This document shows, in pieces, positions 244 through 32,108 of a stretch of 33,323 nt of DNA. Made by a program: the position numbers and the translations under genes. The notes under the pieces were generated by a model that saw only the letters and a list, made by a program, of their open reading frames with translations, did not search any database and was not told the origin of the DNA. The stretch's first letter is position 1, and the number at the start of each line of letters is the position of its first letter. Source of the DNA: a virus (lineage: Duplodnaviria; Caudoviricetes); the IMG/VR virus record IMGVR_UViG_3300003971_000005, positions 1-33,323 of that record. One strand, given 5' to 3'.

Positions 244-272
244 AGCGTTCTATTTATCGCCAGGGTCGCTAT
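242..272 (-). promoter_or_regulatory. TAAATA element (251-256) within a start-occluding hairpin
   Basis: TAAATA-N7-ATG; AUAGCG/CGCUAU stem. Confidence 0.7.
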
Positions 273-589
273 TCGACGACCTCAACCGTGACGGTCAAAG
301 CCGTTGGGCGGCTGGCCAAAACGGTGATGAGAAGACGATCCGCACCCAGATCGTGATCGTCCGTGAGGACCGTGAGGGCTTCCTGAGCGTCGCGCGCCTG
401 GATCGTAACCCGACCGGCGGCAGCGCCCGCCGCGACCGTCACGAGGAAGGTCGGAAGAGTATTCGGCGGGAGCGTTTTGAACTCCGGCGTGACCCAAACG
501 ATGGGATCGCCGTTCTGATCAACAGCGGCGAGTCCGGAAGCTATCGCGGTCAAAATCCCATCATCATCCCAAAAGAACGGCGCTATCAT
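269..589 (-). CDS. Hypothetical protein, possible tail-fibre accessory/chaperone
   Basis: 106 aa beta-rich ORF; ATGA overlap with the fibre stop codon (586-589). Confidence 0.6.
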   Translation of the reverse strand: MIAPFFWDDDGILTAIASGLAAVDQNGDPIVWVTPEFKTLPPNTLPTFLVTVAAGAAAGRVTIQARDAQEALTVLTDDHDLGADRLLITVLASRPTALTVTVEVVE

Positions 590-3500
590 TGCTCGACGCT
601 CACGATACCGAGGCGTTGAGTGTTCTGATCATAGATCGTGTAGGGCGACGGCAGGAGGGTTCCGCCGGGCGTGAACGATCCCGACCTCGACAAGACCGCC
701 TTGTAGGTGAAATCGCCCGTGCTCGTGTTCGTATCGGTGAACGTGAAGGTGATCGATTTCGCACCCTCAAACGAATAGTCGAGGAAGCCGTTGTTCCCGC
801 CCAACGGGTTCGGAGCATCGACTGCATCACCATACTCTTCGACGGTCCAGGTCGCCCCGCCCGCCGAGACCGATTGTGTCGCGACCTGGGTATAGGCCGA
901 TCCGGCGATTGAACGGAAAAGCGTGACGGTCGCCGCTACGGTGTCGGTTCTGGTGCTCGGGTTCGTGTCTCGCGATCCATAGATAGTGTAGCGCCAGGAG
1001 ACCGTTACGGTCTTGGTGTCGCCGTTGGTGCCGAACGGGCCGAGAATGAATTCTTGCGTCGCCGAGAGGCCGGACGCTTCGCCGCCGTTGCGAAGGATAC
1101 CCGCGCTCAACGTCCCGCCGAAATAGGCCGAGCCGTCGTTTTTTAGGTGGAATGTCGAGTTCGCCGTCGTCATCGCGGATAGGGCCATGTTGGACCCAAA
1201 CCACATCACGAGATTGGACGATGTTCCGAAGTTCGGACCCAAAACGAGCTTGGATGATCCGACTTGGATTTCGACCGGAGTCGAGAACCGTGCGTTGCCG
1301 CCGATGATTTCCATGACCTTTTTCAGGCCACTTCCGCCGGTGTTGTAGAGGCCGATAGCCGAGGCGGCCAACATGATGTTTGAGCCGTATGAGGTGGCAT
1401 TCATCCGGAGATACGCGGGGTCGGCGCCAGCCGCCGCGACGATATCGAGATAGGCAGCGGTCTTTCCTTGCAACGTCGAGATCGCACCGGCCTGGGTTGT
1501 CAGCGAGGCGTTCGCCCCGGCGAGGTTGGCCGTGAGAGTCGTGAGCGAGAGGGCTTGAGCCGCCGCGTTCGATGTCCAAGCCGCCGTAACGGCGTTGATC
1601 GATGCCTGGAGGGCCGCGCCGTTTGCAATGGCGTTGGCCGCGTGGCTGGCCGCGACGTTTGACCAGTTTTGCGCCAAGGCGACGTTGGCGGCGGCGTAGG
1701 TGGCGCGCGTCTGCGAGAGGGTGGCGTTTGATGCGGCGAAAGCCGATGCATTGGAGGCGTTGGCCGCATGACCCGCCGCGAGCGCCACGTTGCTGAAGAC
1801 GAGGGCGGCGTTCGAAGTCGCGTATCCCGCCTGGGTCGTCGCCAGGGTCGCATTCGAATTCGAAAAGCCCGAGAAAGTCGCGGCCAAGGTGGCATTGGAG
1901 GCGGCGAAGGCGGCGTTGGCGCTGGCATATCCAGCCTGGGTCGTCGCCAGCGTTACGTTCGATTGGGCGTAGCCCGCGCGCGTAGCGGCCAAGGTGGCAT
2001 TCGAATTCGAGTATCCGGCGAAGGTCGCCGAGAGGGTCGCGTTCGAAGTCGCCAGGGCGGCGTTAGACGTGGCGAATCCAGCCTGGGTCTGGGCGACGGT
2101 GGCGTTGGTTTGGGCGAATCCGGCGCGTGTGGCCGATAGGGTTGCGTTGCTCGCCGCGAACGCCGCGTTCGAAGTCGAGTAACCGGCCTGGGTTGTGGCG
2201 ATTGTCGCATTGGCGGCGGAGTAACCGGCCTGAGTTTGAGAAGCCGTCGAGTTCGCCAAGGCATATCCGGCGAAGGTGGCCGCGAGGGATGCATTCGAAG
2301 TCGCCAGGGCGGCGTTGGACGTGGCGAATCCGGCCTGAGTTTGGGCGACCGTCGCGTTGGCCTCGGCGTAACCTGCGCGAGTGGCCGAGAGGGTGGCGTT
2401 CGATGCGGCGAAGGCGGCATTGGCGTTCGCATACCCTGCCTGCGTCGTCGCCAGGGCAGCGTTTGCGGCGGAGTATCCGGCCAGCGTCCCGGCCAGGGTA
2501 GCGTTGGAAACCGCGACGGCTGCGTTGTCGTTGGCATACCCGGCGAAGGTTGCGGCCAGCGTGGCGTTCGATGCCGCCATCGAGGCGTTGTCGTTGGCGA
2601 ATCCGGCTTGTGTGGTCGAGATCGTCGCGTTGCTGGCGCTGTATCCAGCCGCCGTCTGAGCCGTCGTCGCATTGGCGGCGGCATAGCCGGAGTAGGTCGC
2701 CGCGAGGGTGGCGTTGGACGTGGCCAGGGCCGCGTTGGAATTCGCGAACCCGGCTTGAGCCGTCGAGATCGTGGCATTTGCGGCGGAGTATCCAGCCTGG
2801 GTCGAAGCCGCCGCCGCGTTGGCCGCCGCGTAGCCTGCGAAGGTCGCCGAGAGGGTGGCGTTCGAAGTTGCCAGCGATGCATTCGCCGAGGCGAATCCGG
2901 CCTGAGTGGTCGATATCGTGGCGTTGCTCGCGCTGTATCCCGCCGAGGTCGCGGCGAGCCCGGCATTGGCTGCCGCGTACCCGGCGAACGTGGCCGAGAG
3001 GGTGGCATTCGAGGTCGCGAGGGCGGCGTTAGATGTTGCGAACCCGGCTTGTGTCGTCGAGATCGTGGCATTGGCGGCGGAGTATCCGGCCTGGGTTGAT
3101 GCCGCCGCAGCATTGGCTGCCGCGTACCCGGCGAACGTGGCCGAGAGGGTGGCGTTCGAACTCGCGAGGGCGGCGTTCGAACCGGCGAAACCGGCCTGGG
3201 TGGTCGAGATTGTGGCGTTGCTCGCGCTGTATCCCGCCGAGGTCGCGGCGAGCCCGGCATTGGCCGCCGCATACCCGCTGAAGGTCGCCGCGAGGGTCGC
3301 GTTCGATGTGGCCAGGGCCGCGTTGGAATTTGCGAACCCGGCCTGAGTGGTCGATATCGTGGCGTTGCTCGCGCTGTATCCCGCCGAGGTCGCGGCGAGC
3401 CCGGCATTGGCTGCCGCATAGCCCGCGAAGGTCGCGCTGAGAGTGGCGTTCGAGGTCGCGAGGGCGGCGTTGGCGTTGGCGTATCCGGCCTGCGTTGTCG

Positions 3501-6500
3501 CCAGGGTGACGGACGTATTGGCCGCCGTGGATTCGGTAACATCCTCGAATCGCAAGTAGGCGACTTCGAACGCGCCATCGCCATTCGTTGAGCCGTAGTT
3601 TCCGAAGATAACCGGGCGGAGATAGGCGGGAGGATCGTTGACGGTGACCGCCGTCGCACCCGTGGGAATGTAGGGCGAGGCGAAGGCGTTTTCTTCGACC
3701 TGAATTCCCCAAAGGAGGAAAGATCGTCCCGCGCCGACGACGTTGGCCCCGGCGGCAGCCGTGGGCGAAAGTTGCTGTTGCAAGTAGATTTCAGAGATAG
3801 CGATGGCGCTCGTGGCCGCCGCGCCGGTTAGGCTCCAGCGATACCAACCGTCACCAACGGCGGTAATCGAGTGCGAGGTGGCACCGGCGCCCTTCGATCC
3901 CACGACACCATTTGCGAGATCAAAATTAGCTGAGAACAGCGAAAAGCCATGACCGCCGTAGACTTGTAGGACCGGACAAGACTCATACTTCGCATAGCCG
4001 GAAATCGTGTAGGCCCGGCCCGCGTTCACGGTGAAGTTGTTGAGCCGGGTAATGTAGATATCGCCAGAACCCGCTGAGGTGTCGGTTAGCCGACACGCCG
4101 TCATCGTCCCGTCAGGAGCCGTCGCCGCCGCCGCCGACACCGTGCAAAGAAACTTTGTCCATTGGTCGAGGTCTTGCGAATACGGTTGTCGGTTCGTCCG
4201 CGAGAGCGTCTGGATCGTCTGTGTCGAGGCGGTTGCCGCGCTGATCAGGTACGGCGATGCGGTATCGCCGATCTCGAATTGAGGCCCGGCGATGTGACCG
4301 GTTTCGGTGCCGACGATATCCCCGGCCACGGCTGACTTGAGGTAGACGCGCGGCGTGACGGTTTGGGCCACGGTCGAGTAGCGCGTGATCCGAACGCGGT
4401 TGACGATTGAGGCGCTTGTCGAAGTCGGGACCGCCGCAACCGTCACGAGGCCGCCGCTAAGTGTTGGCGCGACAGTCCCGATATCGGTGTTGTGGAAGAT
4501 TAGATCGTCGTCGCCGAAGCCATCAACGCTGCCGTCGATGCCGAGAACGAACGTCGAGTTGGCCGCCGTGCCTCTCAGGTAGACCGTGAAAGTGACGGCT
4601 TCGCCAGCTTGGACCGCGATGCTATCGCCGGTTACATATCCGAGTGACCCCGCGCCCGAGACCGTGAATAGCCATGCGGCGTTTCCACCGATGGCGGTTG
4701 TCGCGGTTGGCGTGTTTAGCCCGGTCAGCGCCCATGACGTGCCAGTTGCCGAGTTGAGCCAATAGTTCGTTCGGGTCGCGGACTCGGCGAAACTCCCGCT
4801 GACTGTTTGCCAACCCTGGGCCGCCGCTAGGGCGACGACCGATGACGATCCGGCGGATGTCCTCGCCGGGATAATTGGCCCTTGCTGCCGAAAATCGGCA
4901 TCGAGCGGGATGAAGCCAAATCCGGCGATGCTTCCGCCGGTCGTCGGGTCGCTGAATTGTCGGAACTTCGCCGATAGCCGGTAGGAACGTCCCGACGTAA
5001 CGGGGACGACTCCCTTGGTGTGAAGCGGTTGATAGCCGGTCGCGCGCCACGTCTGGCCAATGGTCGTAACCGATTGGAGGGTTCCGTTCGCCATCGTGGC
5101 GACGCTCGCCGTCGATCCGCCCGGTGTTTCAGTCCAGAAGCCGAGTCCGCCCTCAAACGTCGAGGGAAGGGTAGTCGAGACGGTCGAAACCGCGTTCGCC
5201 GCGTAGCTCGCCGCGAGGGCGACATTCGAGAAAACGAGGGCGGCGTTCGCCGTGGCGTAACCGGCCTGGGTCGTCGCGATGTTGGCCGCGACATTGGAGT
5301 TCGCCGCATGGCTGGCGGCCAGGGTGGCGTTGGAAGTCGCCAGGGCGGCATTGGCCGAGGCGTATCCGGCCTGTGTGGTCGAGACCGTTGCGTTGGTCTG
5401 GGCGTACCCGGCGCGGGTGGCGCTGAGCGTGGCATTGCTCGCCGCGAAGGCCGCGTTCGAAGTCGAGTAACCGGCCTGCGTAGTCGCCAGGGTGGCGTTG
5501 GCGGCGGAATAACCGGCCTGTGTAGCGGCGGCGGTCGAATTCGAGTTGGCGTAACCGGCAAAGGTCGCCGCTAGCGTTGCGTTCGAAGTCGCCAGTGCGG
5601 CGTTCGCCGTCGCATATCCGGCCTGTGTTTGGGCGACGGTGGCGTTGGTCTGGGCGTAACCGGCGCGGGTGGCGCTGAGCGTGGCATTGCTCGCCGCGAA
5701 GGCCGCGTTCGAAGTCGAGTAACCGGCCTGCGTGGTCGAGATCGCGGCATTGGAGGCGGAATAACCGGCCTGTGTCGCGGCGGCGGTCGAGTTCGAATTG
5801 GCGTATCCGGCAAAGGTCGCCGAGAGCGTCGCGTTGCTCGCCGCATAGCTCGCATTCGATGAAGCGAACCCGGCCTGAGCCGTCGAGATCGTGGCATTGC
5901 TGGCGGAGTAACCGGCCTGGGTGGCGGCGGCTGAAGCGTTGGCGCCAGCATAGCCGGAATAGGTCGCGGCCAGCGTCGCCGAGGATTGGGCCGCCGCCGA
6001 GTTCGCACCCGCGTAACCGGCCTGTGTCGCCGCCGTGCTCGCCGATGTTTGAGCCGCCGCCGAGTTCGCGCTCGCATAGATCGCTTGGGTATTGGCGACG
6101 ATGGCGTTCGCGTTGGCCCATCCGGCTTTGACTTGAGCATCAACGGCGGAGGCGAGAGAGGCCGCCGCATTGGCTGCCGAGGCCGTCGCATTCGAAATCG
6201 CGAAGGTCGCCATAGCGGCGGCCAATGACGCATTGGAACCGGCCTGGGTCGCGGCGGCTTGCGCCGTGATGGCATTGGCCATCGCCTGGGAAGCTGCGGC
6301 TTGGGTCGCGGTCGCATTGGCCGCCGCGTAGTCGCGGAAGTCCTCGGCCTCGATCCGTGCGGCATCAATGAGGGCGGCGTTGGCGAAGGCCCATGAGGCG
6401 GCATCGGCGGCGCCGTTGGCCGAGTCCTGAGCCTCTTGATAGGCCGTGTTCACGCCCGACTCGATGTCGGCGATCATCCCGGCGATCTCAGAGACATCGA

Positions 6501-8577
6501 CGATCACATTGGCGAGCGCGAACTCAACCGTGACACCGTTCGCCGTGGCGACGTTGTTGGCCAGGAGTTGGCCAGATTCGTTCGTCGCCAAGCCGCCAGG
6601 GACGTTTGCGATTGTGTTCGCGGCCCAATCGATCCCGCCATCCGTGACGGCGGCGACGCGCTGTTCACCCGTGGTGATCGGGCCGAGGATGAGGCGTTGA
6701 GACTTAACGCCGATGACGGTCCGATAGCTGATGCCGACTTCGTAATCCGTCGCGGGCAAGAGGCCCGCCGTGATCTCGCCACGGGTCGCGCTGGCATCAA
6801 TGGCGACTTCGCCAAGCCATCCCATTTCGGCCTGCTCGTCAGCCGATGGGGCCTCGCCCTCAAAGACGAGCGGGCGGCGCCATTCCAGCAATACCTGGGT
6901 CGCGGTGGGTTCGTCGCTTTCGCCCTCGATGACGATGGCGGGTGACGTGACGGCGTTCGAACCCGAGCCCGTCGATATGCTCGTCTCGGTGACGACCCAG
7001 GCATCTTCGCCCGGCGGTTCGGGGTTGGAAGGGTCGAAGGTCTTCAGCGCGGGCGAGGCCGGAGCCTCGGCGGTTTGGCCGAGGGCGAAGGCGTGCTTGG
7101 CATCGGTCTCGGCGCGAAGGCTGAGTTTGACCGTCCAAGTCGCGGGATCGAAATCCCGAGCGACGACGATGAATTTCTGATCATCGAGGGCGAGATCAGG
7201 CAGGGTCACCGTGACGCAATCGCCAGCCCGGACCGCCATAAGTTCGGGCTTTGTCGTCAGGTCGAGTTGGAGGAATTCCCGCCCGTTGACGAGATCATAG
7301 GCCGCGAGTTGATGGGCCTGGGTCGCATCCTGGACGAAAGGATATTCGGCCTCTGTGGACCGGAGTTCGCCGCCATCTTCCTCGACATAGGTCGAAGCCG
7401 TTACGGGCTCGCCGTTCGTGATCTGCCAAAATTGCGATTCCGCACGATATCGCGGCGTGATGTGGTTCTTCCGATCACGGAAGGCGGTCGAGTTGATGAT
7501 CTCGGCGGAGCCGATGACGTGTTCCGGCGTGATGCTGAAGATCGACGACCGGGCCGTGTTGGTGACGCAACTGATCTGCGCCCCGCGCGCGACCGGAACG
7601 GCGCCGCCAGCCTGGAGGAGCGTGCCGAGAACGGCGAACTTGTCATCGGTGGTTTGAACGACACCGCCGACTTTCCAGCCGAGTTCGTCGGCGATGTTGG
7701 CCCCGGCGACGAACGCACTGAGATCGACCTCGGCGGGCGTTGCCCCGATGCCGTAAACGAGAACGTCGTTCTCAAACCGGCCAAGCGTCCAGTTGAGCGC
7801 GCAAAGGTGCGGGTTCTCGCTGAATTCCCAAGTGTCGGGATCATCAATGCGATGATCGCCTTCGCCGCCCGGATAGGTGTCGTCGAGGCGGGGATCGTAA
7901 ACCCGCTGGCCGCGAACGATGTGGACGACCTTCGGAACACCCTGCGGGAAGGTGTTCTGAGAGTAGTCCATGAGCATCACGGCGTGCGCGATGCCGGAGA
8001 GTTTGCCGGGTGATTTCGGGAGTGTGACCCCGGCGTATTGACTCGGCGTTTGGGTTTCAGGAGTCGCGCCGACGCGCCGCGCCATGCGGAACTTGCCGCC
8101 GTGCGTGAACATCTTCGATTTGTAGGTGTGACCGCTTACGGCGTTGACGGTCTGGACGCTGCCAACCGATCCCGAGAGGCCGAGCGTGTAATCGTTCGCC
8201 AGGACACCATCGAACCCGGCGATTGAACCGCCGACGCTCAGGGCGACGATCATCGCCAGCGTTTCGTTCGATTTCCCGAACGTCTCCCGGTAAACGATTG
8301 TCCCGCCCGTCGCGGTGCGGCCATAGACGACGGGAAGGGGATCGTTCCCCGTCAATTTCATATTGAGTTGGGTGCCGGTCGAGGATGGCTTCGGCATCAT
8401 CGAAGACATCGAGAGGCCGAGCGCGAGCGCACTCACGGCCATCCCGACCATACCGATGGCCGACCACGTCGCGACACTCAGGCCGAGGAAGCTCGTCACG
8501 CCGATAGCGGTTGCGACGGCGGCGCCCGCGCTGACTGCTCCGAAGACCGCCACGGCGGCGGCTGCTACCATTGGCAT
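586..8577 (-). CDS. Tail tip/host-specificity (gpJ-like) protein fused to a long Ala-rich heptad-repeat fibre with internal beta-sandwich domains (~2,660 aa)
   Basis: N-terminal gpJ-like motifs (PLPVVYGRTATGG, VRGQRVYDPR, TWEFSENP); likely start is ATG 8577 (TAATG overlap with upstream stop, GGAGGG SD) rather than 8610. Confidence 0.85.
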   Translation of the reverse strand: MPMVAAAAVAVFGAVSAGAAVATAIGVTSFLGLSVATWSAIGMVGMAVSALALGLSMSSMMPKPSSTGTQLNMKLTGNDPLPVVYGRTATGGTIVYRETFGKSNETLAMIVALSVGGSIAGFDGVLANDYTLGLSGSVGSVQTVNAVSGHTYKSKMFTHGGKFRMARRVGATPETQTPSQYAGVTLPKSPGKLSGIAHAVMLMDYSQNTFPQGVPKVVHIVRGQRVYDPRLDDTYPGGEGDHRIDDPDTWEFSENPHLCALNWTLGRFENDVLVYGIGATPAEVDLSAFVAGANIADELGWKVGGVVQTTDDKFAVLGTLLQAGGAVPVARGAQISCVTNTARSSIFSITPEHVIGSAEIINSTAFRDRKNHITPRYRAESQFWQITNGEPVTASTYVEEDGGELRSTEAEYPFVQDATQAHQLAAYDLVNGREFLQLDLTTKPELMAVRAGDCVTVTLPDLALDDQKFIVVARDFDPATWTVKLSLRAETDAKHAFALGQTAEAPASPALKTFDPSNPEPPGEDAWVVTETSISTGSGSNAVTSPAIVIEGESDEPTATQVLLEWRRPLVFEGEAPSADEQAEMGWLGEVAIDASATRGEITAGLLPATDYEVGISYRTVIGVKSQRLILGPITTGEQRVAAVTDGGIDWAANTIANVPGGLATNESGQLLANNVATANGVTVEFALANVIVDVSEIAGMIADIESGVNTAYQEAQDSANGAADAASWAFANAALIDAARIEAEDFRDYAAANATATQAAASQAMANAITAQAAATQAGSNASLAAAMATFAISNATASAANAAASLASAVDAQVKAGWANANAIVANTQAIYASANSAAAQTSASTAATQAGYAGANSAAAQSSATLAATYSGYAGANASAAATQAGYSASNATISTAQAGFASSNASYAASNATLSATFAGYANSNSTAAATQAGYSASNAAISTTQAGYSTSNAAFAASNATLSATRAGYAQTNATVAQTQAGYATANAALATSNATLAATFAGYANSNSTAAATQAGYSAANATLATTQAGYSTSNAAFAASNATLSATRAGYAQTNATVSTTQAGYASANAALATSNATLAASHAANSNVAANIATTQAGYATANAALVFSNVALAASYAANAVSTVSTTLPSTFEGGLGFWTETPGGSTASVATMANGTLQSVTTIGQTWRATGYQPLHTKGVVPVTSGRSYRLSAKFRQFSDPTTGGSIAGFGFIPLDADFRQQGPIIPARTSAGSSSVVALAAAQGWQTVSGSFAESATRTNYWLNSATGTSWALTGLNTPTATTAIGGNAAWLFTVSGAGSLGYVTGDSIAVQAGEAVTFTVYLRGTAANSTFVLGIDGSVDGFGDDDLIFHNTDIGTVAPTLSGGLVTVAAVPTSTSASIVNRVRITRYSTVAQTVTPRVYLKSAVAGDIVGTETGHIAGPQFEIGDTASPYLISAATASTQTIQTLSRTNRQPYSQDLDQWTKFLCTVSAAAATAPDGTMTACRLTDTSAGSGDIYITRLNNFTVNAGRAYTISGYAKYESCPVLQVYGGHGFSLFSANFDLANGVVGSKGAGATSHSITAVGDGWYRWSLTGAAATSAIAISEIYLQQQLSPTAAAGANVVGAGRSFLLWGIQVEENAFASPYIPTGATAVTVNDPPAYLRPVIFGNYGSTNGDGAFEVAYLRFEDVTESTAANTSVTLATTQAGYANANAALATSNATLSATFAGYAAANAGLAATSAGYSASNATISTTQAGFANSNAALATSNATLAATFSGYAAANAGLAATSAGYSASNATISTTQAGFAGSNAALASSNATLSATFAGYAAANAAAASTQAGYSAANATISTTQAGFATSNAALATSNATLSATFAGYAAANAGLAATSAGYSASNATISTTQAGFASANASLATSNATLSATFAGYAAANAAAASTQAGYSAANATISTAQAGFANSNAALATSNATLAATYSGYAAANATTAQTAAGYSASNATISTTQAGFANDNASMAASNATLAATFAGYANDNAAVAVSNATLAGTLAGYSAANAALATTQAGYANANAAFAASNATLSATRAGYAEANATVAQTQAGFATSNAALATSNASLAATFAGYALANSTASQTQAGYSAANATIATTQAGYSTSNAAFAASNATLSATRAGFAQTNATVAQTQAGFATSNAALATSNATLSATFAGYSNSNATLAATRAGYAQSNVTLATTQAGYASANAAFAASNATLAATFSGFSNSNATLATTQAGYATSNAALVFSNVALAAGHAANASNASAFAASNATLSQTRATYAAANVALAQNWSNVAASHAANAIANGAALQASINAVTAAWTSNAAAQALSLTTLTANLAGANASLTTQAGAISTLQGKTAAYLDIVAAAGADPAYLRMNATSYGSNIMLAASAIGLYNTGGSGLKKVMEIIGGNARFSTPVEIQVGSSKLVLGPNFGTSSNLVMWFGSNMALSAMTTANSTFHLKNDGSAYFGGTLSAGILRNGGEASGLSATQEFILGPFGTNGDTKTVTVSWRYTIYGSRDTNPSTRTDTVAATVTLFRSIAGSAYTQVATQSVSAGGATWTVEEYGDAVDAPNPLGGNNGFLDYSFEGAKSITFTFTDTNTSTGDFTYKAVLSRSGSFTPGGTLLPSPYTIYDQNTQRLGIVSVEQ
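1480..3530 (-). repeat. Heptad repeat block 2 of the fibre gene, with a 49-aa/147-bp super-repeat
   Basis: AALATSN-ATLSATF-AGYAAAN-AGLAATS-AGYSASN-ATISTTQ-AGFANSN repeated; near-identical DNA starting at 2904 and 3345 (441 bp = 3x147); boundaries approximate. Confidence 0.85.
5200..6440 (-). repeat. Heptad repeat block 1 of the fibre gene
   Basis: Same 7-aa periodicity (AGYSASN, ATLAATF, AAFAASN); boundaries approximate. Confidence 0.8.
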
Positions 8578-9029
8578 TAGGTGACCCTCCCGAGGGGAGG
8601 AGCCGACCAAGCCTTGGTCGCCGCATTCAACGATCCGAGTTCGCCACGAACACCGCAGCCGTAATCGACGAAGGCCAGGACGCGATCAGCATCAACGACC
8701 ACGCCCAGCGCGGTCCAATCACCCTCACCGGGCAGGCCAACGATGTCGCCAGGAAGGGCGCGAGCCGGAGGAATCCGAGAAAGGCCGACCGTGTTATCGA
8801 GGAAGTCCTCGATCCGCTCGTGACCGGATTTCAGGAGGGCGCGCTTCGCCCCGGATTCGGTCGAGTAGCGGCGAATCTTCGCCAGAGGATCGGGATAGCC
8901 AAGCGCGATGAGATTGGCCGCCGCGAGGTGAGCGCAATCGGCTTTGCCCCAGTCAAATGGGCAAAAGACAAAATCCTTGAACACGGATTGCGCCGCATTC
9001 ACTCGCTCGATCAACGGATTGGAACTCAT
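8577..9029 (-). CDS. Tail assembly protein, NlpC/P60-like (gpK/DUF6950-like)
   Basis: FDWGKADCAHLAA motif and ARALPGDIV; position immediately before the gpJ-like gene. Confidence 0.7.
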   Translation of the reverse strand: MSSNPLIERVNAAQSVFKDFVFCPFDWGKADCAHLAAANLIALGYPDPLAKIRRYSTESGAKRALLKSGHERIEDFLDNTVGLSRIPPARALPGDIVGLPGEGDWTALGVVVDADRVLAFVDYGCGVRGELGSLNAATKAWSAPPLGRVT

Positions 9030-9048
9030 CGAGTATTTAGCCTCGACG
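9027..9048 (-). promoter_or_regulatory. TAAATA element (9034-9039) in a hairpin loop
   Basis: CGUCGAG-GCUAAAUA-CUCGAUG; N4 to ATG. Confidence 0.8.
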
Positions 9049-9054
9049 GCGAAA

Positions 9055-9729
9055 TCACCCGTTGGGACGGAAGATCGAGTCGAGGATGTCGCGCGGCGTT
9101 GCCACTACTGGTCTTGGTGCGGTGTTTGTCGGCTGCGCCTTGGTCGCCGCCTCGGCTCCCCACATCGGATCGACAAGGCTATCGACGTTGAAATCGAGGC
9201 CGGTCTCACCCGCCCATATCGATTGATGCCAAGCGCGGTTTAGGCGGGCGGCCTCACTCGTGATGAAGAGCCGGTCGAAGGCCGAGGCGACATCGAGTTC
9301 AACGACGCGACCGGTATCGACAACGGTGGTCTTGGCGGTTTCGAGCCGACCCGACCAAACGAGTTCGGGCGTTCCGACGACAAGGCCAGTCGCTTCGCTC
9401 ACGATGCCGATCCAAACATAGACGCGGGAGCCCTGAGCGAGTGGAGCCGACAAGGCGCCGACCGCCGAATTCGACGGCGGGAGAAGCGAGACCTGGAGCC
9501 TGGGCGCCGATGTCGCGATGGATTCGTTGATCGAAGAGACCGCGTTGAGGGTGCCGAAGACGGCATCCTTTGACGTGAAGGTCACGGCGGTTCCGTTGAC
9601 GGGAAAGGTCACTTGGCCAGAGCCGCTGACGAGACAGATGGGGTCTTCGCCGATCTCGATCCTGACGGCGGTGAAGACGCGGATGAATGAGCCGCCGAGG
9701 GCGGTGGAAAGCGTCCCGTCCATCGTCAT
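9055..9729 (-). CDS. Minor tail/tail-tip protein (gpL-position)
   Basis: 224 aa; synteny; WHQSIWAGETGLDF C-terminal motif typical of this gene position; ATGA coupling with upstream gene. Confidence 0.65.
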   Translation of the reverse strand: MTMDGTLSTALGGSFIRVFTAVRIEIGEDPICLVSGSGQVTFPVNGTAVTFTSKDAVFGTLNAVSSINESIATSAPRLQVSLLPPSNSAVGALSAPLAQGSRVYVWIGIVSEATGLVVGTPELVWSGRLETAKTTVVDTGRVVELDVASAFDRLFITSEAARLNRAWHQSIWAGETGLDFNVDSLVDPMWGAEAATKAQPTNTAPRPVVATPRDILDSIFRPNG

Positions 9730-10322
9730 TGAGCCTCGACGATCCGGAACGTCAGCCCGACGTTTTCGAGGAAGCCGACCGTCCAGGAGGCGGAGTCGCC
9801 ATCGACGAAGCCCTCGATCTTCGGAGACGCGAATTCACAAACCGCGTTCGCCGCCGGGCTCACCTTCAACATCGGGAGGATCGGGACCGCGACGGCTCCG
9901 CCGCCGGTCGGCGCGGTCACATCGGCGCGGACTCTGTGGAGGTAGCGAACGCCGCCCTGGACGATGCTGAAGAATTGGCCGTTGCGGATTTCATAGCCGT
10001 CGCTGAAGCCGGAGATCGTGAGGCTCGATCCGGTTTGCCCGGCGCCGCTGACGATGGGCGATCCCGGCGATCCGACATCGAAGCCCGGTTGAGGGAAGGC
10101 GACTAAGAGTTTGTCGCTAAGCCCCTGGAGAAGGGCGGTAATCACCGCTCCGGCCTGGGCGACGCGCATCGGGCGACACACGACCTCCAATATCCAGCGG
10201 TCGCCGAGACGAGCGATCCGTTGATCCGGACCGCCCATGATCGGGGTGAGGGTGTTGGCGTTTGAGCGAAGCGCGAAGGTCGTCGAGGACCCGGCGGGCA
10301 AAGTTGGAAATGATGTGGTCAC
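9726..10322 (-). CDS. Distal tail protein (Dit/gpM-position)
   Basis: 198 aa directly after tape measure; QRIARLGDRW motif; GTG start 5 nt after TAAATA. Confidence 0.65.
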   Translation of the reverse strand: MTTSFPTLPAGSSTTFALRSNANTLTPIMGGPDQRIARLGDRWILEVVCRPMRVAQAGAVITALLQGLSDKLLVAFPQPGFDVGSPGSPIVSGAGQTGSSLTISGFSDGYEIRNGQFFSIVQGGVRYLHRVRADVTAPTGGGAVAVPILPMLKVSPAANAVCEFASPKIEGFVDGDSASWTVGFLENVGLTFRIVEAQ

Positions 10323-10344
10323 TTCGATATTTATCGAAGCGACC
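10317..10344 (-). promoter_or_regulatory. TAAATA element (10328-10333) at a hairpin apex
   Basis: GGUCGCUUCGAU-AAAU-AUCGAAGUGACC; 12 bp with one G-U; N5 to GTG. Confidence 0.85.
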
Positions 10345-10354
10345 TCAATCGGGA

Positions 10355-13300
10355 TTACCGGCCCAGGCGGTTCCTCGCCGAGGTCATGTTATCGCGGGCC
10401 ATTTGCTGTTTGGTCGCCATCATCCCCTGCAAGACACCCTCATTGATCCAGCCCTTCACGGTCTGAGTCAGGACCGCATCACGGGCCTCGACGATGATGT
10501 TGTTTGTGAATTGCTGGACCGGAGCCGCCCGCGATCCCGTGACCTTCATCGCCTGACGAACAACGCTGTGAGGGATGACTTGGGAGCCGGTCGGAAGAGT
10601 GATGATCTCATCGCCCTTTTCGTTGATCGTGGTCGGGCCGCCCCGCCAGAAACGGGTTCCCATGGCGTTCGAACCCATATGGGCCGACGCGCTCGATTTC
10701 GATCCGCCGGATTTCGATCCGCCGCCGCCCAGGCCGATCATCTTTAGGCCCCAGCCTGGACCGTTGCCGGTCGCGAGGCCGATGGCTTCCCACATCGCCC
10801 ATTGAATGAAGATTTTCAGAAGGCTTGCGACGACTTCCTTGGCCATGTTCGCCATAGCTTCAGAGAAAGATTCGGCGCCCATGATGGCGTTGACGAGACC
10901 ATCGGAGATCGCGCTCAGCCCTTGATTGGCGATGTCCATCATTGAGGCCGAGAAAGACTTTCCAGCCGTCTGAGCCGCCATGAATGCGTCGATCCATTCC
11001 TGGAGAGATTCCGGGCCGCGCTCGCCCTTCTGCTCATTGCCGAGCCCGGCGGTCTGCCCGGCTTTGATCCCGTCCCGGTTCCGTTGCCGTTCAGCTAGAG
11101 CGGCCTCGATATCGGCCTTGGCGTGGCCGTTCTTGATCCATTGGAGCCGCAAGGCTTCCTGTTCGGCGGCGAAGATGAGGTCATCGGCGGCCTGGGTCTT
11201 CGCCAGGGCTTGCCGCTCATATTCCTGCCGCTCATTGAGGGTCGTCGCGAGTTCGGCCTTCGCGCTTAGTTCATCGGCCTCGATCCGGAGGGCTTCAGCC
11301 GCCGTCTGGGTTCGGGTGTCGTTGATTTCAGCCTGGGCCGCCGCGATCTCTTCCGCCCGGCGGGCGGTCTCGGCCTCTTTCTTGGCGAGGTAGGTTTGCC
11401 CCTCCAGGCTGACGAGCTTTTCAGCCGCCGCCTGGGTGATCTCGCCATCAATGGCGCGTTGTTCGATTGCGCGGATGTTCGCATCACGCTCCTCGATCAG
11501 GGCTTCAAGGGCGACGCGGTGACGGTCTTCGCCGGTGGTCGCGAGAGCCCTAAGGGCCTCGGCTAATTCGCGCTCAGCGCGTTCAACCGCCTCGGCGGAC
11601 TCACGCTCGATATCGTCTGCTGACTTGCCGCCGCCTTTGCCTTTGCCGCCGCCCGTGGGTTTCGTAACCGCTGGCGGCGGGCCATAGCCTTCGACACCGC
11701 CGGGCTTTTTTGCGTCAGCCATGATTTTCGCGAGGTTGGCTTTCGCCTCGTTAAGGGCGCGAAGATTCACGGCCTCCTTTGCCGCTGCCGCCGACACTTT
11801 CGGGTCTGCCTCGACGACCCGACCAACGAGCGCGTCATAGCCACGCGGCTGGATTCGAGGGCCGTCCCCGCCGCCCATCGGGGCGCGCGTCGAGACCGTT
11901 GCCTTGGTCCGGGCTACCCGCGTTTCGCGTTGGGAATCCGCGTAGTCCGTCTTGCTCTGTTCCAGGCTTGCGGCGGCGGCGGCCCGCGCTGCCTCCCAAG
12001 CGGCGAGCGCCATGCGGCCATAAGCCGTCGTCAGCAGGTCAACACGACCGGTGAGATTCGCCGTCGCGGTGAGGGCGGCGAGTTCTTTCTCAGTCAGGTT
12101 GCCGGTCGCGATCCTCGCCTTCGATGCGGCCTTGTCGGCGGCCTCAAAAGCGATCCGCTTTTCCTCAGTCCGCTCGGCGAGATCATGGGAGCTTTCGGCG
12201 GCCTTTGCGGATTGAAGGGCGAACGCGCCCAGCGCAACCGTGATCGCCGTGATCGCAAGGCCGATGCCCGTCGCCGACATCAACGCCCGCATCGACATCG
12301 TTGCGACGACAGCCGCACGGCTCACGCCATGGATGGCTGCGGTCTTGGCCACGAGTTGTCCGGTGTGGGCAATGTTCGCGGCCATCGATCCGACCGTCGC
12401 GGCAGCATATCCACCCATTGCAATCGCCGCCCGACCGACCGCCGGAGCCATGGCAACCGACAACGCGACGACGATCACGCCGAGCGAGTTGGCGACGACA
12501 TCGAGATTGTTGGCCAGGAGCGCGAGGGCTTCGCTCAGGCGCCGCGTAACGCCAAGGCTCGCGTCTGTGTCACCCATGAACTTGATGAGCGAGGTCGAGA
12601 GGTTCGTATAGGACTGAGCGACCGTGAGAGGTGCGCGGGCCGCTTTGGCTTCAAGGCTGGCCGATCCCGCAATGATGAGGTCGAAGAACTCTTTCGAGGA
12701 CAGTTTCCCGGCCAGGACATCGGTCCGCATTTTCGCGACCGATCCGCCGTATTTCGCCGAGGCTCCCGCCGCCGCCTGGAGAAGCGGAAGCATCCCTTCT
12801 GTCATCGAGTTGAATTCTTCGGCGCGGACCGTTCCGGCGCCCAGCGCCTGGGCCATTTGGAGCATGGCGCCGGAGGATGATGCGGCGGTTCCGCCAGAGA
12901 CCCGGATCGCCGCCGAGACGGCATCGGTGACCCGGAGAATTTGCTCCTGACTTACGCCGAGTTCGGTCGATGCCGAGGCGACACGGCCATAGAGTTGGCC
13001 GAGGCTTTCAAGCTCAACGCCGTTCTTGATCGCGCCTTCGTAAAGCCGTTTCTGGACAGTTTCGAGCGCGGCGCCTTCAACGCCCGCGACCTTCAATGAG
13101 TTGGTGAACCGGGCGTAGGTGTCGGCGAGCGCGATGGCCGCCGCGATCCCGGCTCCCGACGCGATGGCGGCAATCGAGGCCATCAATTCGGTTCGGAGTG
13201 ACCCGAGGCCCGCGCCAAGACTCCGGTTTAGAGCCCCGCCGATATTCGAGTTCGCCCAGGCCCGATTTGCGCCGCGTGCAGCCTGTTGGTGTTGATTTGC

Positions 13301-13408
13301 GATGTTCTGCGCGGCCCGCGCGTTGAGGGCCTGGAGCCGCTTTAATTCGCGGTCAAAATCGACGATGTTTGCTTGGTAACGCGCTACAAGTGTTGCTGTG
13401 ACTGCCAT
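10355..13408 (-). CDS. Tail tape measure protein
   Basis: 1017 aa Ala-rich helical; tape-measure motif QMAQALGAGTVRAEEFNSM; C-terminal GGPTTINEKGDEII. Confidence 0.92.
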   Translation of the reverse strand: MAVTATLVARYQANIVDFDRELKRLQALNARAAQNIANQHQQAARGANRAWANSNIGGALNRSLGAGLGSLRTELMASIAAIASGAGIAAAIALADTYARFTNSLKVAGVEGAALETVQKRLYEGAIKNGVELESLGQLYGRVASASTELGVSQEQILRVTDAVSAAIRVSGGTAASSSGAMLQMAQALGAGTVRAEEFNSMTEGMLPLLQAAAGASAKYGGSVAKMRTDVLAGKLSSKEFFDLIIAGSASLEAKAARAPLTVAQSYTNLSTSLIKFMGDTDASLGVTRRLSEALALLANNLDVVANSLGVIVVALSVAMAPAVGRAAIAMGGYAAATVGSMAANIAHTGQLVAKTAAIHGVSRAAVVATMSMRALMSATGIGLAITAITVALGAFALQSAKAAESSHDLAERTEEKRIAFEAADKAASKARIATGNLTEKELAALTATANLTGRVDLLTTAYGRMALAAWEAARAAAAASLEQSKTDYADSQRETRVARTKATVSTRAPMGGGDGPRIQPRGYDALVGRVVEADPKVSAAAAKEAVNLRALNEAKANLAKIMADAKKPGGVEGYGPPPAVTKPTGGGKGKGGGKSADDIERESAEAVERAERELAEALRALATTGEDRHRVALEALIEERDANIRAIEQRAIDGEITQAAAEKLVSLEGQTYLAKKEAETARRAEEIAAAQAEINDTRTQTAAEALRIEADELSAKAELATTLNERQEYERQALAKTQAADDLIFAAEQEALRLQWIKNGHAKADIEAALAERQRNRDGIKAGQTAGLGNEQKGERGPESLQEWIDAFMAAQTAGKSFSASMMDIANQGLSAISDGLVNAIMGAESFSEAMANMAKEVVASLLKIFIQWAMWEAIGLATGNGPGWGLKMIGLGGGGSKSGGSKSSASAHMGSNAMGTRFWRGGPTTINEKGDEIITLPTGSQVIPHSVVRQAMKVTGSRAAPVQQFTNNIIVEARDAVLTQTVKGWINEGVLQGMMATKQQMARDNMTSARNRLGR

Positions 13409-13433: not shown

Positions 13434-13444
13434 TTGCTTGGTCG

Positions 13445-14447: not shown

Positions 14448-14452
14448 ATTAT

Positions 14453-19028: not shown

Positions 19029-19035
19029 CGGGCCG

Positions 19036-20280: not shown

Positions 20281-20298
20281 CGAGTATTTAGCTCGATG
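20278..20298 (-). promoter_or_regulatory. TAAATA element (20285-20290) in a hairpin loop, portal
   Basis: CAUCGAG-CUAAAUA-CUCGAUG perfect 7-bp stem; N4 to ATG. Confidence 0.85.
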
Positions 20299-20357
20299 CG
20301 GGTCGCGGGCGGCTCACGGGCGGCTCACGGCGGTTCAAGCCGTTCTCGGCCCTGAAA

Positions 20358-21989: not shown

Positions 21990-22007
21990 CGACTATTTAG
22001 CCGGAGC
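21986..22007 (-). promoter_or_regulatory. TAAATA element (21994-21999), terL
   Basis: GC-U-CCGGCU-AAAU-AGUCGG-U-GC; N4 to GTG. Confidence 0.8.
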
Positions 22008-22072
22008 GGGAGTTCGCCCGGCTTAGTCGCGCCCAGGTAGGCAAAAGGCGCGGCGCCTGTTAGCCATTCTCA

Positions 22073-22537
22073 ATGATCGACTTGAATCTCTCGGCCCAGG
22101 ACACACGCGATCTCTTCATCGGGATCACTGGCGGACTCATCGTCGCGGCGTTGCTCGCATTGATCGCCGTGTTTCGGAAGTTTGGGGCCAAAGGCTTTCT
22201 TCACCTTCGACGGTCGGTAGCGAAGTTTGAGCTTCAGCTTGTCGAGAATTTGCCAGATGAAAATTCCGCGATTATCGCGCGGACCATCTACAACAATACA
22301 TTTCTCGTCTGCCAGTTTGTTCTAATTACAGCCTTGGCCGCGACAGTGTCTTTTGTTGTAGGCAATTCAGGTTCGAAGGGCGAAGTCGCTATCGGTTTCT
22401 TTCTTGGTGCGTTTAACGGGATCGTGGCGCCGTTCATCATGATCACGATGAGACTCAACGAACTCACCATGAGGGCGGTTACAGGTCGCGAGAGGCTGAC
22501 AGACGAGCTTCGCGCTAAGCTCGAAAGGCTCAGTTGA
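22073..22537 (+). CDS. Moron, membrane protein (about 3 TM segments)
   Basis: Antisense insertion between terS and terL; hydrophobic stretches; AT-richer. Confidence 0.7.
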   Translation: MIDLNLSAQDTRDLFIGITGGLIVAALLALIAVFRKFGAKGFLHLRRSVAKFELQLVENLPDENSAIIARTIYNNTFLVCQFVLITALAATVSFVVGNSGSKGEVAIGFFLGAFNGIVAPFIMITMRLNELTMRAVTGRERLTDELRAKLERLS

Positions 22538-22973
22538 TCAGGCCGTCGAACTCGTCACTCTGTGATTGTTCCGGCGCCGTGATCGCAGCGCGGGACACCG
22601 GATCGAAGCCGAGTTTGGTCGATAGCGTGACCATGAGCCGGGCCTGATCTGACTGAATCTTGACCCAAGGGCTCACGACCAATTGGCCCGTTGAACCCGT
22701 CGTCATCATCCCATGTTCGGCGATAGCGGCGGTCGCGGCTTGGTGACCCGCGTAGGCTTCAGCGAAGGCCACGAGCAACGCCTCATCGACGCTTTGATAG
22801 AGGCCGGGAGGCATGGCGCCGACAAGGCGTTTGAAGATCGCCAGGGCTTCCCGTGAGAGGGACTTCGGCGGGGCCAGGACACCCTTCGCCTTCGGCTCAT
22901 TGCGGTTGAGTTTTTTCTTGGATGGGTTGCCCGCGAGTTCGTGAAGGCGGGTCGGTTTGAGCGGCATAGGCAT
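22530..22973 (-). CDS. terS: Terminase small subunit (P27 family)
   Basis: KPTRLHELAGNPSKKKLN...EP and KLGFDPVSRA motifs. Confidence 0.92.
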   Translation of the reverse strand: MPMPLKPTRLHELAGNPSKKKLNRNEPKAKGVLAPPKSLSREALAIFKRLVGAMPPGLYQSVDEALLVAFAEAYAGHQAATAAIAEHGMMTTGSTGQLVVSPWVKIQSDQARLMVTLSTKLGFDPVSRAAITAPEQSQSDEFDGLIN

Positions 22974-22997
22974 CGGGTATTTAGGCCCGGCTCATGC
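22964..22997 (-). promoter_or_regulatory. TAAATA element (22978-22983), terS
   Basis: GCAUG..CGGG-CCUAAAUA-CCCG..UAUGC; N4 to ATG. Confidence 0.8.
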
Positions 22998-23497: not shown

Positions 23498-23540
23498 TAT
23501 TTATGCTCGCCGATATTGTGGCGTTCTGGCTATTTATTTA
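23498..23540 (-). promoter_or_regulatory. TAAATA elements before the hydrolase gene (23498-23503; overlapping pair 23531-23540)
   Basis: TAAATA-N5-ATG, and TAAATAAATA further upstream. Confidence 0.7.
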
Positions 23541-23719: not shown

Positions 23720-23725
23720 TATTTA
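23720..23725 (-). promoter_or_regulatory. TAAATA element pointing into the cos region
   Basis: GATAAATA with no convincing ORF directly downstream. Confidence 0.5.
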
Positions 23726-25827: not shown

Positions 25828-25857
25828 TATTTATGCAGACACGTTCAGATTTCGCAA
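25828..25857 (-). promoter_or_regulatory. Leftward promoter TTGCGA-N18-TAAATA
   Basis: -35-like 25852-25857; TAAATA 25828-25833; N5 to ATG. Confidence 0.7.
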
Positions 25858-25879: not shown

Positions 25880-26275
25880 ATTAGGCCGTTCTAACCCGAC
25901 AAGTTAGGTTTTTCTAACTACATTTCGCGGCCATTTTTGCCTCCAGGGCCGAGCCGACAGAGGGGCGGAATCGACGCAAACCCTTTTCCCGTAACGGTTT
26001 CCGCTCCCGATGGCGGGCCACGCCCCGCCCAATAATTCGCCCGCCACGTCGCCAAGTTAGGAAAGTTAGGTAGTTAGGCAGGCAAACTTCTTTACACACG
26101 CACACAACACCCTGCGCACTACCCTATATATATATTCTATTATTATTATATAAAAAGACTAACTTACCTAACTTTGGGCAGCAAAGGCTTATGGGATAGG
26201 GTTTTGCGAGGTTAGGTTCGATCTAACTTCGACCTAACAAGTTAGAGTCCGAGCTAGGTTCTCTCTTTGGCTAAC
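25880..26275. repeat. Putative replication origin: GTTAG/CTAAC iterons flanking an AT-rich core
   Basis: AAGTTAGG 26054 and 26063, TAGTTAGG 26071; AT core ~26125-26156; inverted CTAACTT 26159 and CCTAACTT 26167; more copies at 25890-25920 and 26210-26275; directly upstream of primase. Confidence 0.75.
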
Positions 26276-26302: not shown

Positions 26303-26332
26303 TTGCGGCCAAGTCTCGTGTTATGCTAAATA
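26303..26332 (+). promoter_or_regulatory. Rightward promoter TTGCGG-N18-TAAATA
   Basis: Precedes the candidate sRNA. Confidence 0.65.
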
Positions 26333-26335
26333 GTA

Positions 26336-26421
26336 GTGGTCGAGGAATTCAGTCACCTCGATCAACTGTGTATTGATTACCTTGGCCCTTGCGAGTTTTG
26401 TCCCTCGCAGGGGCCTTTTTC
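26336..26421 (+). ncRNA. Candidate ~85-nt small RNA or attenuator
   Basis: Begins just after TAAATA 26327; hairpin TGGTCGAGG/CCTCGATCA; ends in an intrinsic terminator. Confidence 0.5.
26384..26421 (+). terminator. Intrinsic terminator
   Basis: GGCCCTTGCGAG-N8-CTCGCAGGGGCC-TTTTTC. Confidence 0.85.
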
Positions 26422-26439
26422 ATTTCATGACGAATCAAA

Positions 26440-26469
26440 TTGCAAGAAAAGAAATGAGAATGATAAATA
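26440..26469 (+). promoter_or_regulatory. Rightward promoter TTGCAA-N18-TAAATA
   Basis: 49 nt before primase ATG, just after the terminator. Confidence 0.65.
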
Positions 26470-29136: not shown

Positions 29137-29188
29137 CGTTTGCATAAATAGATTGGTCAACACCGAAAGGGCCTATCTTATGCAAACG
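29137..29188 (+). promoter_or_regulatory. TAAATA element (29145-29150) overlapping the 5' arm of a start-occluding hairpin
   Basis: CGTTTGCATAA/TTATGCAAACG perfect 11-bp inverted repeat containing ATG 29180. Confidence 0.8.
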
Positions 29189-29416: not shown

Positions 29417-29440
29417 TCGATCTCGCCTAAATAGGATCGA
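29417..29440 (+). promoter_or_regulatory. TAAATA element (29428-29433), spanins
   Basis: TCGATC...CCTAAATAG-GATCGA(TG); N6 to ATG. Confidence 0.75.
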
Positions 29441-30964: not shown

Positions 30965-30970
30965 TAAATA
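30965..30970 (+). promoter_or_regulatory. TAAATA element
   Basis: GATAAATA followed by a GC hairpin at 30977-31001. Confidence 0.55.
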
Positions 30971-31014
30971 AACAGAGGGGGCGGACGCGGTGTCCGTCCC
31001 CGTGGGTTCCCGGA

Positions 31015-31188
31015 ATGGCCAGCGACATCGATCTCAATCACGCGAGCTTTGCCGAGGCGTTGAACGCTCGCATCCAGAGCGTCATCGACGAAGCCCGCGA
31101 ACTCTTCGATCTCGAATGGTCGGGCCGAGATCGCCCCGATGATCTCGATCCCGATCTCGATGATCCGCGCCGTTCTTCGCTTCGATGA
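31015..31188 (+). CDS. Small acidic hypothetical protein
   Basis: ATG 31015 downstream of TAAATA 30965; weak SD. Confidence 0.4.
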   Translation: MASDIDLNHASFAEALNARIQSVIDEARELFDLEWSGRDRPDDLDPDLDDPRRSSLR

Positions 31189-31372
31189 TCCCGAGGATGG
31201 CCGCGACTTCCTGACCTGGGCCGTCGAGATCGGTCTCCAGGCCCGCGACCTCACGACTCCCGAGGCGCCGTTCCCCCGCTACCGCCTGATCGAAATCCAA
31301 GGGGACGAACTCGAATCCAAAATCGAGATCGAGAGTTGGTTCGCCTTCGTCGTCAGCCTCGGCGTGGTTTGA
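31160..31372 (+). CDS. Hypothetical protein
   Basis: Phage-like codon usage; start uncertain (31139 or 31160). Confidence 0.45.
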   Translation: MIRAVLRFDDPEDGRDFLTWAVEIGLQARDLTTPEAPFPRYRLIEIQGDELESKIEIESWFAFVVSLGVV

Positions 31373-31481
31373 ATGATCGCAATACTAAGCGAATTCAATA
31401 TAGGTGTCGCATAATGGCAACACTAACAAGAAAAGTAGACGAGTCCGCGATAGATATGGACGGCTCGTGTAGTGGTTTGCA

Positions 31482-31487
31482 TAAATA
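31482..31487 (+). promoter_or_regulatory. TAAATA element
   Basis: CATAAATA 56 nt before ATG 31544. Confidence 0.6.
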
Positions 31488-31543: not shown

Positions 31544-32062
31544 ATGACTGAATATGATTTAATGAAAGAGGTTGCCGCATTAGTGACCACGCTCCTCGAC
31601 TCCAGGGGTTGCCAGAGAGACACCGGCTCCAGTTTCGAAGATATGCACTTCGTTATCCACGCCGATGATGCCTTGGATTTACCGACGACATATTCATTCC
31701 TGCGCGATGATTGGCGCGAACTCGGAGATTTCTCCGGAGAAATCACGATCCGGGAAGTCACGCGGAAGAGGATCGAGGCCGCCGCGATGACGACATTCGG
31801 CCCGTTTATCCGGTTTCCGTTCCGCGTCACTGAGGGCCGGGTTGTGGTTCCGGGTCGCTACGCCACACGCGGCCATCGCTTCAGCCGCAAACGTCTTCGA
31901 CATTACGCGGAATGGGCCTCACGAGCCGCCGCGAGTTGGGAACCCGAGGCCAAGGATCGTCGGCTTTATGAGCATATCGTCGCGCACGGCGTTGCCGACG
32001 ACTACGCGCACGAAAAGAGCCTGCGGGTGATGTCGGAGGGCCTGTTGGCGCAGGCGCTCTGA
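31544..32062 (+). CDS. Hypothetical protein
   Basis: Likely ATG 31544 with GGA upstream; TAAATA at 31482. Confidence 0.65.
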   Translation: MTEYDLMKEVAALVTTLLDSRGCQRDTGSSFEDMHFVIHADDALDLPTTYSFLRDDWRELGDFSGEITIREVTRKRIEAAAMTTFGPFIRFPFRVTEGRVVVPGRYATRGHRFSRKRLRHYAEWASRAAASWEPEAKDRRLYEHIVAHGVADDYAHEKSLRVMSEGLLAQAL

Positions 32063-32079
32063 TCACGGCGAGGGCCATG

Positions 32080-32108
32080 GGGGCGCGATCATAAATAGCT
32101 CGTGCCCC
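32080..32108 (+). promoter_or_regulatory. TAAATA element (32092-32097) in a hairpin loop, methyltransferase
   Basis: GGGGCGCGA-UCAUAAAUAGC-UCGUGCCCC; 9 bp with one G-U; N4 to GTG. Confidence 0.8.

Follow-up and report, generated by a model that had tools for sequence, protein, structure and literature searches.

The virus record IMGVR_UViG_3300003971_000005 of IMG/VR (Caudoviricetes), analysed here over all of its positions 1 to 33,323 (the window), is a long-tailed provirus of HK97 type with primase-like, VapE-like, endolysin, spanin and methylase genes, in which a single hexamer, TAAATA, recurs gene by gene. The question raised by this locus is what reads that box. A preliminary description of the sequence proposed that each module has its own T4-late-type promoter and yields leaderless mRNA. 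The explanation that we favour, with a probability of about 0.58, is that the window belongs to a clade of prophages which encodes its own virion but borrows a late sigma factor of the gp55 type from a superinfecting T4-like phage.

The window contains 24 copies of TAAATA, against a mean of 2.5 and a maximum of 7 in 100 dinucleotide shuffles (0/100 reach 24), close to the two or so that had been estimated to arise by chance. TAAATA is also the most over-represented hexamer, at 16.7-fold over a second-order Markov expectation, the runner-up reaching 4.2-fold. The coordinates and strands first listed by eye were all reproduced: 17 boxes lie on the minus strand (251–25828) and seven on the plus strand (26327–32092), all pointing away from the putative origin region and none reversed, and 22 of the 24 fit S-M-TAAATA, the two exceptions being the tandem pair at 23531/23535. 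Fourteen boxes stand just before start codons, with a gap of 4 nucleotides (nt) in nine genes, 5 nt in three, and 6 and 7 nt in one each. The remaining boxes mostly head leadered genes, with leaders of 31 nt (major tail), 126 nt (major capsid), 49 nt (primase-like) and 29–56 nt (three small right-arm open reading frames, ORFs). Coupled genes and the four morons have no box, in line with what had been noted for them. An origin of the boxes as a stop-codon artefact is ruled out by the upstream genes, which end well away from them.

The arrangement is not peculiar to the window. Relatives were gathered with capsid, portal and tape-measure queries and form a sample, so the clade has at least the members counted here. 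Box enrichment at p < 1e-4 was found in 34 of 413 scored sequences (the next sequence has p 3.5e-3), and these collapse to about 25 elements, which answers the advice to look for the pattern in related prophages. The clade consists of HK97-type prophages and contigs of Alphaproteobacteria (Peiella, Novosphingobium and uncultured members), 33–42 kb long and 45–65% identical in protein sequence, its named hosts being Peiella sedimenti XZ-24, Novosphingobium silvae FGD1 and N. chloroacetimidivorans S00245. Among 14 elements examined more fully, a box lies 3–7 nt before the start of the distal-tail, tape-measure and 150-amino-acid (aa) tail genes in 14/14 cases each, of 13/14 portals and of 10/13 small terminases. 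The gene caller behind these counts favoured starts preceded by a box; when genes were called with no such bonus, the exact box stood at a gap of 4–5 nt in 101 of 551 genes, versus 5 for all one-mismatch variants. A quick tree built from the 70 portals that lie nearest the window, once loci that were short or ambiguous had been set aside, groups every one of the 17 box-positive rows in one clade, with a Shimodaira–Hasegawa-like approximate likelihood ratio test (SH-aLRT) value of 99. The full tail set is present in 14/14 elements, with head and tail genes kept in order, and no cultured phage is more than 41% identical to the clade in terminase. The clade is rare: 400 further alphaproteobacterial genomes gave no portal match, and surveys for more hosts returned no genomes beyond those used as survey centres.

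Serine or tyrosine integrases are found in the Peiella element, both Novosphingobium elements and G704, G705, G706 and G712. The Peiella element (G002:C4, about 98,000–136,600) sits between two radC halves and carries MucR and SRAP genes, and that of N. chloroacetimidivorans is flanked by cobB halves, assigned by eye. The replication genes of the window, N. silvae, G705, G707, G709 and G712 have boxes upstream, those of G704 do not, and a box also stands upstream of the excisionase-like gene of G708; none of the elements has a box heading an integrase. Two other small-phage lineages, L311 and L445, one of them with a different head gene set, also have TAAATA before most modules, mostly leadered and often with G before the box, which suggests that the same wiring arose independently, or repeatedly.

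What kind of signal the box represents was judged from 248 sites in 13 elements. The gap to the start is 4 nt at 87 sites and 5 nt at 54 (141/248 together), and A or C directly precedes the box in 87%. Neither a TTG peak at the −35 position nor an extended −10 (TG) is seen at these sites. The exact box was observed 258 times against 21 expected, and each one-mismatch variant is at most 2-fold enriched. The boxes thus have the form (A/C)TAAATA with no −35 element, the lone box of a T4-type late promoter, and not the TTG −35 with a degenerate −10 of a host sigma70 promoter. Late promoters that depend on gp55 are reported as TATAAATA at −13 to −6 in T4, with the variant CTAAATA in Aeh1 (PMC1524935), and as NATAAATA in S-PM2 (PMC2984593); they share the core, the lack of a −35 element and the placing of one box per gene group. 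They differ from the boxes of the clade, which lie in an unrelated HK97-type prophage with no detectable gp55 and head replication genes too. In the P23 oligonucleotide, CTCCTGA directly follows the box (PMC7892883), and the N. silvae major-tail box continues in the same way, which may be chance. Among T4-like phages of Alphaproteobacteria, a box lies within 60 nt of the start of 23 genes in phiM12 and 58 genes in 460 kb of Phosso, nearly always at 15–45 nt and mostly preceded by A or C. In Cr30, TAAATA precedes the capsid, gp22 and sheath genes, and several of the other late genes have TAAGTA in its place. Counted genome-wide, TAAATA is weakly enriched or depleted in the candidate helpers (phiM12, 65 against 33; Phosso, 52 against 34; Cr30, 26 against 81; Atu_ph07, 42 against 51). 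As a separate observation, many late genes of Cr30 (L189/L190) have TAAGTA upstream, a variant of the late promoter.

Taken at the level of sequence, the TAAATA boxes are likely to be T4-type late promoters. The proposal of one such promoter per module stands as regards the invariant box, the missing −35 and the occurrence of the same box in T4-like alphaproteobacterial phages; it does not stand as a description of late modules only, the box also heading replication, lysis and methylase genes.

A host factor might also read such a box. In that case it would be the −10 element of a housekeeping or alternative sigma factor of the host, silenced in the lysogen by, for example, MucR; homologues of MucR are present in 3/14 elements, leaderless host genes are common, and GCTAAATA resembles the Caulobacter −10 consensus, which we take to be GCTANAWC. 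We consider this improbable. A gap of 4–5 nt is 1–2 nt short for sigma70, mismatches in the box are not tolerated, and about 20 separate promoters would each need repression. Caulobacter RpoD promoters are reported to carry a TTG −35 (PMC4287350), whereas the boxes have none. Host targets would also be expected, yet the pattern is nearly absent from the three hosts outside the prophage, where 11 of 12, 10 of 14 and 12 of 15 genome-wide matches to MTAAATA-N4-6-ATG lie inside it; the Peiella element has 23 boxes in 39 kb versus 0 in 60 kb of flank. In 300 other Caulobacterales genomes, counts among the matches listed are of the same order as those of the reversed control. The preliminary description had taken a motif equally common before ordinary host genes as grounds for giving up its proposal, and host DNA is nearly without the pattern.

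The bases around the box point to where transcription would begin. At 26 leadered sites, pyrimidines predominate in the four bases ahead of position six and a purine occupies that position in 81%, and at gap-5 sites a pyrimidine precedes the ATG in 90%; a start five bases after the box fits both. Gap-4 sites, where C precedes the box in 61% and G the ATG in 75%, would need a start one base earlier. Spacing and the base in front of the box covary, a C-box going with a 4-nt gap ending in G and an A-box with a 5-nt gap ending in C. In capsid and major-tail leaders, which are mutually related rather than independent and from which the 126-nt capsid leader of the window was left out, GGAG is paired with the five bases that directly follow the box in 19/25 predicted folds versus 4.5 expected from shuffles. 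The mean unpaired probability of their ribosome site rises from 0.05 in read-through RNA to 0.27 in RNA starting five bases after the box. The same hairpin logic over a ribosome site is described for T4 gene e (PMC3014915), and gp55-dependent late promoters are alike both in predicted start distance and in such hairpins with the box at the 5' arm (PMC1524935; PMC2984593; PMC3014915). Spacer bases and hairpins together place the predicted start 4–5 nt after the box, and most mRNAs would then be leaderless; in Caulobacter, leaderless mRNAs are reported for 9.6% of coding sequences and to be translated as well as leadered ones (PMC4117421). Leaderless mRNA from every module had been claimed, and the spacer bases and hairpins agree with this for most genes; the capsid and major-tail genes are leadered. 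With its tightly fixed distance to the start codon, the motif might instead be a translation signal or a protein-binding site on long transcripts. This is extremely improbable, as in leadered genes the box also lies 26–126 nt from the start and is then followed by the start-like pyrimidine-to-purine pattern, and as it equals a known promoter of phages of the same hosts.

If the boxes are late promoters, a specificity factor has to be supplied. A genome search with the gp55 profile (phrog_234), a loose first pass in which weak matches can be missed, found no match in 13 virus records or in three hosts, versus 4/4 T4-like alphaproteobacterial phages. The Sigma70 region 2 profile matched 0/13 records, and a Cr30 gp55 query gave nothing below E 5 in 14 elements. 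Sigma, CI, Cro and Q were without match among the scanned non-core proteins (92 + 149 + 57; most, not all, of those called), and gp33 and gp45, at which no search was aimed, were not among the PHROG matches of the scanned proteins. The regulators found comprise MucR in three elements, antitoxin-like helix-turn-helix proteins, two excisionase-like genes and one PHROG 'transcriptional regulator', and none was seen throughout the clade. A lambdoid CI/Cro switch with a single Q-controlled late operon was not found among the proteins scanned, boxes standing before each module instead. Box-negative sister prophages of Rhizobiales and lambdoid/HK97 phages have the same head–tail families in the same order, with portals up to 57% identical, but the sisters have almost no boxes (one gene with a box 3–7 nt before its start in nine sister prophages) and usually carry HTH_3 or S24 regulators. 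These domains occur in 13/14 box-negative versus 2/11 box-positive records (Fisher p 2e-4, overstated by relatedness and incomplete records), and S24 in 0/11 of the latter.

An autonomous phage could read TAAATA with a specificity factor of its own, either a very diverged sigma factor or a small RNA-polymerase-binding protein. The complete virion gene sets of the clade, the replication module kept by many members, the many small ORFs belonging to no family and the incompleteness of the window and most relatives would all suit such a phage, as would weak matches that the gp55 search can miss. An invariant box would need a conserved reader, however, and a six-frame comparison of 2,536 non-core ORFs found no family in more than 6/13 elements except the tail-chaperone frame. 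The Peiella element has both radC halves yet no sigma-like gene, the gp55 of Cr30 had no match below E 5, and the candidate ORFs of sigma size lie behind a box themselves. We therefore regard an own factor as unlikely. Of the individual candidates, the 172-aa right-arm ORF of the window gave no usable Atlas match and a single-sequence model with a predicted local distance difference test (pLDDT) score of 34, and a 218-aa Peiella ORF was rejected as a sigma factor, resembling Pam3_Gp34/Gp3-like clusters instead.

We return to the borrowing of gp55 from a T4-like phage. In the lysogen, host RNA polymerase would be unable to read the boxes, so that no repressor would be needed, and the integrase and morons, which have no box, would run on host promoters. 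An infecting T4-like phage would make gp55, upon which about 20 promoters would fire together with starts 4–5 nt after the box, the foreign gp55 serving as the switch for replication, packaging, virion and lysis genes. Most of the resulting mRNAs would be leaderless, while those for capsid and tail tube would start without the hairpin arm by which their ribosome site is masked. Siphovirus particles of the element's own making would follow, in which it would escape from the doomed cell. In the T4 system, gp55 holoenzyme alone is reported to give basal transcription, gp33 alone to repress and gp33 with gp45 to activate (PMC7892883).

Several points weigh against this explanation. Full activation in T4 needs gp33 and a loaded clamp, and gp33 by itself is repressive. 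Genes shared with T4-like phages number 20/632, no higher than the 15/598 of control prophages. The TAAGTA variant of Cr30 is unused by the elements, and for this reason Cr30 itself may not be the helper. The leaderless layout is foreign to the candidate helpers: where the clade is mostly leaderless, only 1/23 and 0/58 boxes of phiM12 and Phosso lie within 7 nt, and none of the five T4-like genomes searched contains the exact leaderless pattern SMTAAATASNNNATG. In the sequences compared, this layout is confined to the prophages. The most frequent gap (4 nt, 87 sites versus 54) is one short of the 5 nt of the T4 consensus, and gap-4 sites have G rather than a pyrimidine before the ATG. The Peiella element may be decayed, no replication gene and no endolysin having been found in it. 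Most records, the window included, are incomplete and hold many small ORFs with no family, among which a diverged factor could be missed. Finally, an element would also have to survive the helper's attack on host DNA, and we infer the dependence on a helper itself from sequence. Gene sharing, being no higher than in the controls, was rejected as proof of contact with T4-like phages. The spanin and SegE-like matches are single cases each (the second spanin-pair gene of the window has its sole matches in the phage collection in the jumbo phages Phosso and Atu_ph07, at 31–32%), and the best matches of the endolysin are not T4-like.

With T4-type promoters accepted, the elements might still be mainly defence or abortive devices, acting through early lysis, nucleases or interference with assembly, and seldom spread as their own particles. 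HNH/GIY-YIG nuclease and lysis genes do lie behind boxes in several elements, and neither a primase/helicase nor an endolysin was found in the Peiella element. Such a role is very improbable given the full, ordered head and tail sets in 14/14 elements; integrases and insertion sites differ and the hosts span two orders, which points to movement, and PADLOC finds no defence gene in the window except the methylase.

Both the promoter type and helper-activated elements as such are already known. The late promoters of P4 can be activated by Ogr of P2. The T7 islands, reportedly described by Chen and Schneider in 2006, are said to be integrated elements with many promoters for a lytic phage's transcription enzyme, these being T7 RNA polymerase promoters and not gp55 boxes, and to have no complete virion gene set. 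Phage-inducible chromosomal islands (PICI), their capsid-forming relatives (cf-PICI), P4-like satellites and PICI-like elements (PLE) are also integrated and switched by a helper, as predicted here, PLE responding to a lytic phage (PMC10085698). Satellites have no tails or holins, which are listed as forbidden components of PICI and cf-PICI, and hijack virion parts; the clade encodes head, tail and usually lysis genes, would borrow transcription specificity only, and on account of its tails and lysis genes falls outside these definitions (PMC10085698). The named elements do have integrases of their own, as integrated satellites do, and the window itself has none. We found no report of prophages or satellites with T4-late promoters in a literature that was represented by abstracts, with few subscription papers. 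The elements might form a new class of phage parasite, namely complete-virion prophages with no repressor or activator, for which the invader's late sigma factor is the only induction signal, which escape in their own particles and which have several origins (the clade, L311 and L445); the chances of this are about even.

If true, a prophage would need no sensor protein to detect infection by lytic phages of an entire family, its promoters being written in the invader's code. Helper dependence would operate by transcription alone, in elements that satellite finders exclude by design (tails and holins being present). It would also account for the failure of some intact prophages ever to react to DNA damage, provide a simple sequence signature for pairing prophages with helpers, and yield a tight promoter part, triggered by infection, for use in Alphaproteobacteria. 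Of the hosts, Peiella sedimenti XZ-24 and the two Novosphingobium strains are in culture, and so is the T4-like phage Cr30.

The features of the window are collected in Table 1. Integrase, repressor and sigma matches are all missing from it, and the lack of an integrase in a provirus indicates that the record is probably cut short; its capsid protein was located on an 82.6-kb contig, so the record has probably been trimmed. The nearest named relative is the Peiella element (portal 64% identical) and the endolysin is closest to those of Brevundimonas, Rhodobacter and Caulobacter phages, which together make a Caulobacterales host likely. The two gene arms diverge from an AT-rich, repeat-bearing stretch at about 26 kb where the GC skew turns, and by these features the stretch is likely to be the origin of replication.

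Table 1. Boxes and other features of the window, with boxed nuclease genes of other loci in the last row.
Feature	Position	Strand	Remarks
Box, 7 nt before holin-like gene (1–243)	251..256	-	
Complete HK97-type head, connector and long-tail gene set	586..22973	-	
Box, 4 nt before tail gene 8577–9029 (coupled to central tail fibre)	9034..9039	-	Position kept in 14/14 elements
Box, 5 nt before distal tail protein (GTG)	10328..10333	-	14/14 elements
Box, 4 nt before tape measure protein	13413..13418	-	14/14 elements
Box (14479–14484) and 31-nt leader of major tail protein	14448..14484	-	Bases directly after box predicted to pair with GGAG ribosome site
Box, 4 nt before small gene heading head-closure/neck/terminator group	15873..15878	-	
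Box, 4 nt before head–tail adaptor	16503..16508	-	
Box within 3' end of protease gene, 126 nt before major capsid gene	18465..18470	-	
Box, 4 nt before prohead protease	19017..19022	-	
Box, 4 nt before portal	20285..20290	-	13/14 elements; 14th record ends there
Box, 4 nt before large terminase (GTG)	21994..21999	-	
Box, 4 nt before small terminase	22978..22983	-	
Boxes 23498, 23531 and 23535 before CHAP-domain endolysin	23498..23540	-	Nearest 5 nt from ATG
Box with no clear ORF behind it	23720..23725	-	Conserved in nearest relative; possibly small RNA or long endolysin leader
First left-arm box, 5 nt before 98-aa cysteine-rich endonuclease-like gene	25828..25833	-	
Putative origin between divergent arms	25880..26270		AT-rich core, AAGTTAGG direct and inverted repeats, GC-skew turn
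Boxes 26327 and 26464 before primase-like gene (49-nt leader) and VapE-like helicase	26327..26469	+	
Box before small ORF of no known function	29145..29150	+	
Box, 6 nt before spanin pair	29428..29433	+	
Boxes 30965 and 31482 before ORFs of 57 and 172 aa of no known function	30965..31487	+	
Box, 4 nt before DNA methyltransferase (GTG; 32102–32812)	32092..32097	+	
Nuclease genes behind their own box, in other loci	L169:14776-15201, L460:17935-18342, L174:7627-8163, L182:15298-15855, L465:2657-3142, L006:5207-5725, L170:9232-9852		

Some further genes deserve mention. The family related to the holin-like gene has a weak PHROG holin match in relatives. The central tail fibre (586–8577, 2,663 aa) contains long Ala/Asn/Thr/Ser-rich repeat tracts, and its length across the clade ranges from about 1,000 to 2,600 aa. 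The moron at 23580–24695, on the opposite strand, has a Schlafen AlbA_2 domain and a homologue in G706 and is a possible defence gene, with no PADLOC match. In the nearest relative, L006 (93% capsid identity), the primase-like and VapE-like genes are absent at L006:2900–4400, which holds a 239-aa ORF of no known function and short tandem repeats instead. Free-standing GIY-YIG or HNH nuclease genes with their own box occur in at least seven places and could be homing endonucleases or anti-helper nucleases. DNA methyltransferases also recur downstream of a box: the family of the window gene is present in 6/14 elements, and other methylase families occur in G712 and G709, the G712 methyltransferase being 47% identical to a phiM12 protein.

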